In this document: in pieces, positions 38,850 to 40,421 of the stretch
How positions within the stretch are numbered: position 1 is the stretch's first letter
Layout: each line of letters begins with the position of its first letter
Source: a virus
Reading direction: 5' to 3' (one strand)
IMG/VR virus record: IMGVR_UViG_3300029876_000390
DNA length: 64,000 bases
Made by a program: the position numbers and the translations under genes
Notes under the pieces: model-generated
The model's database searches: none
What the model was told of the DNA's origin: nothing
The model's input: the letters and a program-made list of their open reading frames with translations, nothing else

Positions 38850-39464
38850 ATGTCGAAGCAAAGCAATAAGGTCAAATTTGGCCTGAAAAACTGCCATTAT
38901 GCCAAGGCGACCTTTGACGAGGATGGCAGCGTTACCTACGCAAAGCCGGTCCGCATCCCCGGTGCAGTCAGTCTTTCTATGGATGCCAATGGCGAGATCG
39001 AGCCGTTCTATGCGGACAATATCGCTTACTATGTCGTGAATAACAATTCCGGCTACGAGGGTGATCTGGAGATCGCACTGATTCCGGAGAGCTTCCTCAC
39101 GGACATCATGCACGAGGAACTGGATGGTAACGGCGTGCTTGCCGAGAACGCCAATGTGGAACTGGAACATTTCGCCTTCCTGTTCGAGTTTGATGGTGAC
39201 CAGCGTCACATCCGCCATGTGCTGTACAACTGTGTAGCAAGCCGTCCGTCCATCGAGGGTGAGACCAACGAGGACAGCAAGGAAGTCAAGACAGACACCC
39301 TGAACCTGCAGGCAACCCCTCTGGCAAACGGTTATGTCAAGGCAAAGACCGGTACCAACACCACGGATGATGTCTATAACAAGTGGTACGATGCGGTCTA
39401 CGAGCCGCAGGCAGAAGCTGTGGACACCGAAGACACCAGTCACACCGAGGAGCCGCAGGGCTAA
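38850..39464 (+). CDS. Major tail protein (phi13-family-like).
   Basis: 204 aa; RBS ATAGGAGGAATAACCT before ATG; located upstream of the G/GT chaperones; followed by a UUCG-tetraloop hairpin. Confidence 0.7.
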   Translation: MSKQSNKVKFGLKNCHYAKATFDEDGSVTYAKPVRIPGAVSLSMDANGEIEPFYADNIAYYVVNNNSGYEGDLEIALIPESFLTDIMHEELDGNGVLAENANVELEHFAFLFEFDGDQRHIRHVLYNCVASRPSIEGETNEDSKEVKTDTLNLQATPLANGYVKAKTGTNTTDDVYNKWYDAVYEPQAEAVDTEDTSHTEEPQG

Positions 39465-39482
39465 GTGACCGACACACACCGC

Positions 39483-39498
39483 AGGGCTTCGGCTCTGC
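39483..39498 (+). terminator. Stable UUCG-tetraloop hairpin (terminator / RNA-stability element), copy 1.
   Basis: CAGGGC-UUCG-GCUCUG, 6-bp stem with one G.U pair; an identical element recurs at 40371-40386. Confidence 0.45.
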
Positions 39499-39526
39499 TT
39501 ACATTATTATAAAGAGGTATATGACT

Positions 39527-40354
39527 ATGAAGAAGATTTTTCCTTTGTTCGCAGTGATCATCGTTCTGGTACTGGCTGTCTGCTCGTTCCACATCATCCC
39601 CACCGGTTACACGGGCGTGAAGACCAGCTTCGGCCAGATCCAGGAGACCGCCATCCAGAGCGGCAAGCTCAACTTCTGCATCCCCTTTGTGCAGAGCATT
39701 CACAAGGTCAACAACAAGCAGCAGGATAAGCACATCGAAGCACAGGTCTGGGGCGAAGCCTCTGACAAGACCCCTGTGTATGCTGCTGATGTCATCGTGA
39801 CCTATCAGGTGCTTCCTGAGAAGAGTGCATGGCTGTATGCGAATGTGTCCGACATCAAGAATCTGGTCGGTGACGAGCTGGTGGCATCGGCAATCAAGTC
39901 TGCAATGGCTGAACTTGGCCCCAATGAGGTAACCAACCGCACCAAGATCGAGCCTCTGGCACAGCAGAAGCTGGCAGAGTCCCTTGTGCAGAAATATGGT
40001 GAGGACGTTGTGTTCGTAAACAAGGTCGTCATCAACGACATGAATTTCGAGGATGCCTATAACGAAGCCATCCAGCAGAAGTCCATTGCACAGCAGAACG
40101 CAGATAAGCAGAAGATTGAGAATGAAGCTGCCATTGCCAAGGCAGAAGCGGATAAGCAGGTGGCAATCACCAATGCAGAGGCGGAAGCCCAGAAGACTTC
40201 TATTGCCGCAGACGCACAGGCAGAGGCAAACCGCAAACTGGCAGAAAGCCTGTCCGATACGCTGATCGATTACCAGAAGGTTCAGAAGTGGGATGGAAAG
40301 CTGCCCACTGTGAGCGGCGGTAATGCACTGGTCAGCATTGACCCGGCAGAGTAA
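39527..40354 (+). CDS. SPFH / band-7 (prohibitin/HflKC-like) membrane protein, a moron inside the tail module.
   Basis: N-terminal TM helix KKIFPLFAVIIVLVLAVCSF, SPFH core (TGYTGVKTSFGQIQE...VIVTYQV...), long Ala/Glu/Gln-rich coiled-coil tail typical of the band-7 family. Confidence 0.8.
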   Translation: MKKIFPLFAVIIVLVLAVCSFHIIPTGYTGVKTSFGQIQETAIQSGKLNFCIPFVQSIHKVNNKQQDKHIEAQVWGEASDKTPVYAADVIVTYQVLPEKSAWLYANVSDIKNLVGDELVASAIKSAMAELGPNEVTNRTKIEPLAQQKLAESLVQKYGEDVVFVNKVVINDMNFEDAYNEAIQQKSIAQQNADKQKIENEAAIAKAEADKQVAITNAEAEAQKTSIAADAQAEANRKLAESLSDTLIDYQKVQKWDGKLPTVSGGNALVSIDPAE

Positions 40355-40370
40355 GAACCACGATATACGG

Positions 40371-40386
40371 CAGGGCTTCGGCTCTG
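40371..40386 (+). terminator. UUCG-tetraloop hairpin, copy 2 (after the SPFH gene).
   Basis: acggCAGGGCttcgGCTCTGcc, same as the copy after the major tail protein. Confidence 0.45.
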
Positions 40387-40421
40387 CCAATTTTACATGA
40401 AATTTATGGAGGATTACGATT

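Follow-up and report, generated by a model that had tools for sequence, protein, structure and literature searches.

A prohibitin-like SPFH gene between two hairpins in the tail operon of a temperate gut phage

The SPFH gene and its product

The viral DNA analysed here is the 64,000-nucleotide stretch of IMG/VR record IMGVR_UViG_3300029876_000390 (hereafter the window), from a phage that groups with the Candidatus Heliusvirales gut phages (PMC11283538). Within its tail operon, on the + strand at 39527..40354, lies a gene for a prohibitin-like SPFH protein of 275 amino acids, placed between the gene for the major tail (tube) protein (MTP) and that for tail assembly chaperone G, with a TTCG-loop hairpin on either side. 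A sequence-only reading of the window had proposed that this gene is a moron inserted together with a copy of the MTP gene's terminator. We find that the gene is indeed an insertion, that it evolves under the same strong purifying selection as the tail genes around it, and that its hairpins are not a copied terminator. On balance, we favor a role for its product as an accessory membrane scaffold late in lytic growth.

The MTP gene (38850..39464, +) matches phrog_88 'major tail protein' (E=5.1e-59) and the Pfam family L_lac_phage_MSP (E=1.6e-7). A 16-nt spacer separates it from hairpin 1 (39481-39498, +; GCAGGGC-TTCG-GCTCTGC), which has seven pairs including one G.U and is contained in the upstream copy of a 21-nt direct repeat (39478..39498, +). 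Directly 3' of this hairpin is the motif TACAT (UACAU in RNA; 39500..39504, +), near-invariant among relatives even where the spacer varies, followed by the ribosome-binding site (RBS) of the SPFH gene, AAAGAGG (39511..39517, +), which stands 9 nt before the ATG and reads GAGG or GGAG in relatives. We place the start codon at 39527; an earlier in-frame ATG at 39521 reads ACG in most relatives. A similar series of elements follows the SPFH open reading frame (ORF). After a 14-nt spacer comes the downstream repeat copy (40367..40388, +), flagged as terminator-like in a consensus scan and containing hairpin 2 (GGCAGGGC-TTCG-GCTCTGCC; 40369-40388, +; 8 pairs), then a second TACAT motif (40394..40398, +) and the GGAGG RBS (40408-40412, +) of the chaperone gene.

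The chaperone gene itself (40422..40802, +) encodes 126 amino acids and matches phrog_709, a family without assigned function, so that its assignment comes from synteny. We read it as the G tail chaperone because it precedes the tape-measure gene (42589-48111), has a -1 extension and a slippery heptamer, and keeps the same order in relatives. The extension is a -1 frame ORF (40772..40963, +) that matches phrog_3033, and the heptamer is a canonical A_AAA_AAC (40772-40778, +); by the lambda G/GT paradigm, -1 frameshifting would yield the GT form of the chaperone. With phrog_88 upstream and G/GT downstream, the placement of the SPFH gene between the MTP gene and the tail chaperones agrees with the sequence-only reading.

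The identity of the SPFH protein is supported by matches in Pfam, PHROG and the PDB and by its predicted structure. The Pfam search that the sequence-only reading had called for was positive, with Band_7 (PF01145) matched over residues 23-209 and profile positions 2-175 of 176 (63.1 bits against a gathering cut-off of 23.6; E=4.5e-17). PHROG 200 is matched with E=1.5e-38, and the best sequence matches in the PDB are prohibitin-1, HflC, QmcA and HflK. An AlphaFold2 model of moderate quality (predicted local distance difference test score, pLDDT, 70.6; the C-terminal 30 residues are unreliable) contains a helix at residues 5-19, a strand-rich alpha/beta core with helices at 97-157, and a 79-residue helix at 174-252. 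When this model was searched with Foldseek, the top matches were human prohibitin, HflK/HflC, erlin, stomatin and QmcA, all with probability 1.0 and across the full-length architecture. The long C-terminal helix is rich in Ala, Gln and Glu and carries a conserved YQK.QKWDGKLP motif at its end, and invariant motifs are kept in homologues of 72-100% identity. The Band_7, AlphaFold2 and Foldseek results together bear out the earlier description of an N-terminal transmembrane (TM) helix, an SPFH core and a long coiled-coil tail.

The N terminus begins with KK followed by an 18-residue hydrophobic stretch, and Lys or Arg precedes the hydrophobic stretch in all homologues. PHROG 200 bears the label lipoprotein, which we rejected for this protein: the sequence LAVC has Val at position -1, and its Cys is replaced by T, I, Q or S in most homologues. 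Because this Cys is not conserved, the N terminus is predicted to be a signal anchor rather than a lipoprotein signal. By the positive-inside rule, the N terminus would be cytoplasmic, and the SPFH domain and coiled coil would lie outside the cytoplasmic membrane.

This predicted N-in/C-out topology matches that of Escherichia coli HflK/HflC, which form an FtsH-modulating cage, and the phage protein shares with these proteins and with mitochondrial PHB1/PHB2 the combination of an N-terminal TM helix, an SPFH domain and a long coiled coil. It differs from both in being encoded by a single gene rather than as a heteromeric pair; paired K and C genes are absent from the locus, where the one SPFH gene has tail genes as neighbors. 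The protein also falls below the cut-offs that define HflC equivalogs (30 against 427 bits for NF008259 and 22.9 against 134.4 bits for TIGR01932). SPFH-NfeD operons such as QmcA-YbbJ and PH1511-PH1510 encode SPFH proteins of like size and fold, but no NfeD partner adjoins the phage gene, nor does one adjoin its closest chromosomal homologues (L181 and L184). A link to the ClpP-type prohead protease, considered as a relative of the NfeD protease, was dropped; that protein matches only CLP_protease and SDH_protease, and nothing ties it to SPFH. Judged by its sequence, the phage protein is neither an HflK/C orthologue, nor a member of an SPFH-NfeD pair, nor a lipoprotein.

Insertion, selection and loss among relatives

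Seven relatives, comprising six deposited phages and one prophage in a metagenome-assembled genome (MAG; L178), lack the SPFH gene (L001-L003, L161-L163 and L178). Their MTPs are 54-78% identical to that of the window and their chaperones are homologous, and their MTP and G genes lie -4 to +24 nt apart with no hairpin. Because the two tail genes abut in these more distant relatives, the SPFH gene is an insertion, as the sequence-only reading had supposed. The order MTP-SPFH-G is found in approximately 130 IMG/VR contigs and in prophages of Clostridium fessum, Blautia and Faecalibacterium isolates. The same slot is kept in L160, L175 and L158, whose SPFH proteins are 81%, 80% and 72% identical to that of the window, and in each of them a hairpin with TACAT stands on both sides of the gene. 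The gene is very common in human-gut metagenomes, with single 90%-identity clusters holding hundreds to thousands of members. Among the isolate prophages, the 13.5-kb tail regions of L166 (Blautia faecis DFI.3.66) and L173 (Faecalibacterium intestinale CLA-AA-H281) are 99.2% identical in nucleotide sequence; these isolates belong to two different clostridial families, which implies a very broad host range, a recent transfer, or assembly contamination or misassignment.

Measures of selection and composition place the SPFH gene alongside its neighbors. By the Nei-Gojobori method, applied to approximately 1,210 pairs of intact sequences, the ratio of mean nonsynonymous (dN) to mean synonymous (dS) divergence is 0.042 for SPFH, 0.045 for MTP and 0.037 for G, and dS to the most divergent carrier is 0.92, 0.99 and 1.15, respectively. 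The GC content overall and at third codon positions (GC3) is 0.528 and 0.678 for SPFH, 0.537 and 0.683 for MTP, and 0.517 and 0.661 for G, and the codon usage of the SPFH gene is like that of its neighbors. The equal dN/dS, dS and GC3 of the SPFH gene and the flanking tail genes thus mark it as an old functional resident and not as recent cargo.

These values bear directly on the idea of a selfish or neutral passenger gene, carried along in a recombination hot spot and of no benefit to phage or host. The slot does behave as a hot spot. In L170 (5510-6230) and L080, an ORF of approximately 240 amino acids for an HNH-AP2-type homing endonuclease lies between hairpin 2 and the chaperone gene, so that the MTP-G junction is a recurrent insertion site; in this one sub-lineage the insert takes over the original RBS of the chaperone. 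The SPFH gene has also been lost repeatedly, as would be expected of neutral cargo. Against this idea, a dN/dS of about 0.04 is sustained to a dS of about 0.9, an intact SPFH ORF of 275-277 amino acids is present in 50 of 55 distinct MTP-to-G sequences, and the invariant motifs are kept across homologues of 72-100% identity. We consider neutral cargo extremely improbable and effectively refuted by the selection analysis.

The losses themselves are informative. L104 and L115, from two different metagenomes, have a clean 889-bp deletion of the SPFH gene that leaves a single hybrid hairpin, with its left flank from copy 1 and its right flank from copy 2. Compared with the SPFH-bearing contig L107, L104 is 100% identical over 2,133 bp on the left and differs at a single position over 3,095 bp on the right (99.97%), and the left and right alignments overlap by the 21-nt repeat. 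The L104 state therefore reads as a recent 889-bp deletion by recombination between the 21-nt repeats. An ancestral empty site, the other origin considered for L104 and L115, was ruled out by flanks identical to those of SPFH-bearing contigs and by a junction that coincides with the repeat. The sequence-only reading had suggested a search for empty sites with a single hairpin; such sites do exist in L104 and L115, but they are secondary deletions, and the distant gene-less relatives have no hairpin. Four or five further disruptions fall within the gene: L121, L127 and L136 have a 373-nt internal deletion in common, L123 has a larger internal deletion, and the gene is frameshifted in L100 and L143. 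As far as sequences can show it, then, the SPFH gene is dispensable and can be lost, most cleanly via repeat recombination.

The possibility that the SPFH protein serves in morphogenesis, with tail or tape-measure assembly in this lineage needing it as a scaffold or chaperone at the membrane, has to be weighed against these losses. The gene keeps its position throughout the sub-lineage, is constrained as tightly as the MTP and chaperone genes, and is probably co-transcribed with the tail genes, all of which fit such a role. Yet the gene is missing from relatives with homologous MTP, G, GT and tape-measure proteins, and it has been cleanly deleted in two independent metagenomes from an otherwise identical background. 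Furthermore, tail assembly is cytoplasmic, but the predicted place of the SPFH domain is outside the membrane, and close homologues are found in non-structural regions of other phages. In an unrelated phage contig (L159), an SPFH gene with 76% identity lies among small, tightly packed early genes with no hairpins, and the SPFH genes of FP_Toutatis, Lelie and phiFN37 lie in replication regions. We regard a morphogenetic role as very improbable. The nearest cellular homologues (40-46% identity) are found among housekeeping genes in Clostridia MAGs, and a chromosomal origin of the phage gene is therefore plausible.

Hairpins, promoters and the moron question

The 18-mer GCAGGGCTTCGGCTCTGC is present exactly twice in the 64 kb, at 39481-39498 and 40370-40387, and two copies were found in 0 of 100 dinucleotide-preserving shuffles even with three mismatches allowed. 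These figures confirm the duplicated UUCG hairpin that the sequence-only reading had noticed on either side of the SPFH gene. In register, the repeat extends to 21 nt with one mismatch (39478-98 and 40367-87), so that the element was correctly recognized on both sides, but its coordinates were off by 1-2 nt and the length given as 22 nt should be 21. Each copy folds into a hairpin with a TTCG loop; hairpin 2 is energetically exceptional (z=-3.75), and hairpin 1 is not by energy alone (z=-1.4). The hairpin 1 repeat is conserved in approximately 130 related contigs, and the hairpin of some relatives has a compensatory A-U to G-C change (GCGGGGC...GCTCCGC), while L158 and L175 have hairpins of wholly different sequence at the same positions. 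The compensatory change and the different-sequence hairpins show that the structure is under selection.

In L158 and L175, which are earlier-branching carriers, the upstream and downstream hairpins also differ from each other in sequence. That the two copies agree in the window is therefore a trait of its sub-clade and not a footprint of the insertion. The notion that the hairpin is a copied MTP terminator fails as well, as relatives without the SPFH gene carry no hairpin and the single-hairpin sites are recent deletions. The hairpins resemble the intrinsic-terminator or 3'-stabilizer hairpins of phage late operons, being GC-rich tetraloop structures just after a stop codon with a moderately U-rich tail, and hairpin 2 passes a terminator-like filter. 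They differ from them in that the U-tracts of both are short, a conserved UACAU and then an RBS follow both, the arrangement recurs at seven gene ends, and no Rfam family matches the hairpin region at E<=1.

A sigma-70-like scan found no promoter-like site on the + strand between 38100 and 40390. The possibility that TACAT belongs to a promoter of the SPFH gene or of G, as its -35 or its -10 element, was considered and set aside, since the transcription start would then fall in or after the RBS or ATG. The same scan found two promoter-like sites upstream of the neighboring opposite-strand cassette (41075-42479, -), in which four genes (DUF3791, DUF3990 and two small ORFs) lie between the GT chaperone and the tape-measure gene. 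This cassette has a GC content of 0.41-0.45 and a GC3 of 0.32-0.49 and matches the PADLOC candidate system PDC-M13, and its slot in relatives is empty, differently filled, or occupied by an Abi_2 gene (L158). By its sequence features the cassette looks like a classical moron in a hot spot of the HK97 gp15 type; the SPFH gene does not.

The comparison matters for the view that the SPFH gene is itself a classical moron, transcribed from the repressed prophage, which would protect the lysogen, for instance by stopping superinfecting phages from injecting DNA at the membrane like HK97 gp15, or would alter host membrane physiology. HK97 gene 15, a moron for superinfection exclusion, is similarly an extra membrane-protein gene in the tail block of a temperate siphophage, with the flanking genes adjacent in relatives (PMC3594210). 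It lies between the chaperone and tape-measure genes, is served by a dedicated promoter and terminator, deviates in GC content, and encodes a small YebO-like protein (PMC3594210). The SPFH gene stands one slot upstream, with no promoter detected, a native composition and an unrelated sequence, and the slot equivalent to that of gp15 holds the cassette at 41075-42479. Several further observations are in keeping with a moron. The SPFH gene is extra where MTP and G abut in relatives, and a terminator-like hairpin follows it; the membrane-anchored protein would, by prediction, be exposed on the outer side, at which incoming tails act; the phage is a temperate one and encodes serine integrases at 52072-56483; HK97 gp15 is a precedent from inside a tail operon (PMC3594210); and defence-type cargo occupies the next intergenic slot, both here (PDC-M13) and in L158 (Abi_2).

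Other results point away from a moron. There is no promoter-like site upstream of the SPFH gene, although the scan detects such sites for the neighboring cassette, and only about 12 nt lie between hairpin 1 and the RBS. GC and GC3 are as in the tail genes and unlike those of the cassette, no PADLOC-DB defence or exclusion model matches the SPFH protein at E<=0.01, and strictly virulent phages and early lytic modules also contain SPFH homologues. Set beside the published moron criteria (PMC3594210), the SPFH gene is an extra gene with a predicted terminator-like hairpin downstream, and its base composition does not deviate; it thus agrees with only two of the four testable criteria. We consider a classical moron possible but unlikely, and nothing that we found points to the prophage expression implied by the sequence-only reading.

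Elsewhere in the window, the phage holin lies around 48738-49280, and two large serine recombinases of 735 amino acids each form a tandem pair at the end of the lysis module (52072-54279 and 54276-56483, +). A third serine recombinase (60557-62431, +) lies in a lower-GC stretch at 57-64 kb, which may be a separate element or host DNA.

The combination of a hairpin and UACAU extends beyond the SPFH gene. With hairpins defined by our own threshold of at least 7 pairs and at least 5 G-C pairs, TACAT occurs within 10 nt after 7 of 53 GC-rich + strand hairpins, compared with 0.4 expected (binomial P=1.5e-7), and an RBS comes next in most cases. TACAT ranks at the top of all 1,024 pentamers after GC-rich hairpins; a looser hairpin definition weakens the enrichment (7 of 116 hairpins, P=3e-5). 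The sites stand at gene ends at 2083-2118, 5636-5672, 13385-13435, 22524-22576, 39481-39504, 40369-40398 and 51964-51994, all on the + strand, and there is none on the - strand of the window. A distant relative, NatCom_42228, has three such sites (P=0.002), one of them after the major capsid gene.

UACAU is the recognition site of MazF in Staphylococcus aureus (PMC7470975). The window itself encodes a PemK/MazF-like endoribonuclease (13502-14065, +; PF02452, E=1e-20), which is extended at its N terminus by approximately 60 amino acids of basic character and for which no obvious antitoxin was identified, and homologues annotated as 'MazF-like growth inhibitor' are present in three of four other Heliusvirales genomes checked. 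One could imagine, given that MazF of Gram-positive bacteria has UACAU as its site, that the hairpin+UACAU units are RNA-processing signals. A sequence-specific endoribonuclease, which could be the phage PemK/MazF-like protein or a host MazF, would cut the polycistronic transcripts there and leave segments capped by hairpins, each with a stability of its own. In this way the SPFH cistron would be released as a separate mRNA, and its product would be a late membrane cage controlling a host membrane protease or lysis timing. This processing scheme seems improbable to us. The correlation between the MazF-like gene and the sites is imperfect, because L187 has the gene and no such sites, and avoidance of UACAU in late genes is not significant after Markov-3 correction (5 observed compared with 10.1 expected, with the complement equally rare). 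For these two reasons, the MazF link is a lead only. As a separate observation, GGACC, GGTCC and CCTGG are the pentamers most under-represented against Markov-3 expectation in both the window and NatCom_42228 (L185), which suggests avoidance of GGWCC and CCWGG restriction sites.

A proposed role late in infection

The explanation that we favor, if by a limited margin of confidence, is a late, lytic-cycle accessory membrane scaffold: a protein made by late co-transcription, its dosage punctuated by the hairpins, that forms an outward-facing SPFH cage conditioning the host membrane or a membrane protease. In this scenario, an accessory, non-virion SPFH gene would have entered the MTP/G slot in a siphophage ancestral to one sub-lineage of temperate, Heliusvirales-like siphophages that infect gut Clostridia. 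The insertion is established by the relatives; its source was probably a chromosomal clostridial SPFH gene. The gene's own intergenic units, each a hairpin with UACAU and an RBS, would have come along on both sides. Since then the gene has evolved together with the tail genes, under purifying selection of the same strength as theirs. Because no promoter of its own was found, and because it lies on the same strand, has a strong RBS and matches its neighbors in composition, the SPFH gene is most likely expressed in lytic growth, from the late (tail) transcript. The hairpins may serve at the RNA level to form 3' ends, as attenuators or in processing, and may thereby adjust the amount of SPFH protein to that of the tail tube protein and of the chaperones.

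By analogy with solved SPFH proteins, the product may assemble as a large membrane-anchored ring or cage around a patch of membrane or a protein, and would in this way condition the host membrane late in infection. As its target we would prefer an FtsH-type protease, or else membrane proteins of the phage or the host through which lysis timing or DNA entry is controlled; in a specific FtsH or lysis-timing target we have much less confidence than in the scaffold as such. Virulent T4-like and jumbo phages also have SPFH homologues, and in further phages the gene sits in an early or replication region, which argues for a role in the lytic cycle rather than in lysogenic conversion.

Several points weigh against this explanation. 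The topology of the protein is predicted from its charge distribution, and no link to FtsH was found, its score as an HflC equivalog (30 bits) being far short of the cut-off (427 bits). The window encodes a 273-amino acid protein with a sigma-70 region 4 domain (1234-2055, +), possibly a phage sigma factor, so that a non-sigma-70 promoter could have been missed by our scan, and late promoters may differ from the consensus. The defence-type cargo in the adjacent slot shows this operon to be tolerant of genes expressed from the prophage. In addition, the loss variants are metagenome contigs and could represent decaying prophages instead of viable phages. Clearly defective prophage copies, grossly deleted, are found in bacterial genome contigs (L171, L169, L177 and L180), for example with the major capsid gene fused to the start of SPFH or with the MTP gene running into the end of G; gut Clostridia therefore commonly contain decaying copies of the window phage.

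Phage SPFH or 'prohibitin family' genes have been annotated repeatedly and have sometimes been called morons (PMC5834331, PMC10269572, PMC1524935), and lysates of Vi01-like and jumbo phages have been reported to contain low levels of SPFH peptides. In full-text literature searches we found no functional study of phage SPFH proteins, only annotation and speculation. Other PHROG 200 proteins resemble the one described here in being accessory, single-gene Band_7 proteins of approximately 250-300 amino acids with an N-terminal hydrophobic anchor. They include the 'membrane protein, stomatin/prohibitin domain' of Faecalibacterium phage FP_Toutatis, the 'prohibitin family protein' of Fusobacterium phage phiFN37, orf75 of Burkholderia phage CSP3, and ORFs of the T4-like phages RB43, 44RR and Aeh1. 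Identity to deposited phage SPFH proteins is at most 29%, apart from 44% to one unverified record that resembles host DNA. In other phages the SPFH gene lies in early or replication regions or at genome ends, whereas here it lies inside the tail operon and is bracketed by hairpins. Thus, the gene type is already known from annotation, and what is unusual here is its tail-operon location and bracketing punctuation.

PHROG 200 is a large family, spread among temperate, virulent and jumbo phages, and no member has an assigned function. The lineage described here offers a good handle on that function, as the gene is common in the gut, is present in prophages of cultured isolates, is under strong selection, and has natural isogenic deletions. 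Its position in a late operon argues for action of the SPFH protein during lytic growth and redirects the usual speculation about lysogeny and HflKC. Should the RNA-processing scheme prove true, the SPFH protein would represent a new functional class of phage late protein. The hairpin+UACAU punctuation is, in any case, a testable candidate for a transcript-processing signal in a widespread order of gut phages.

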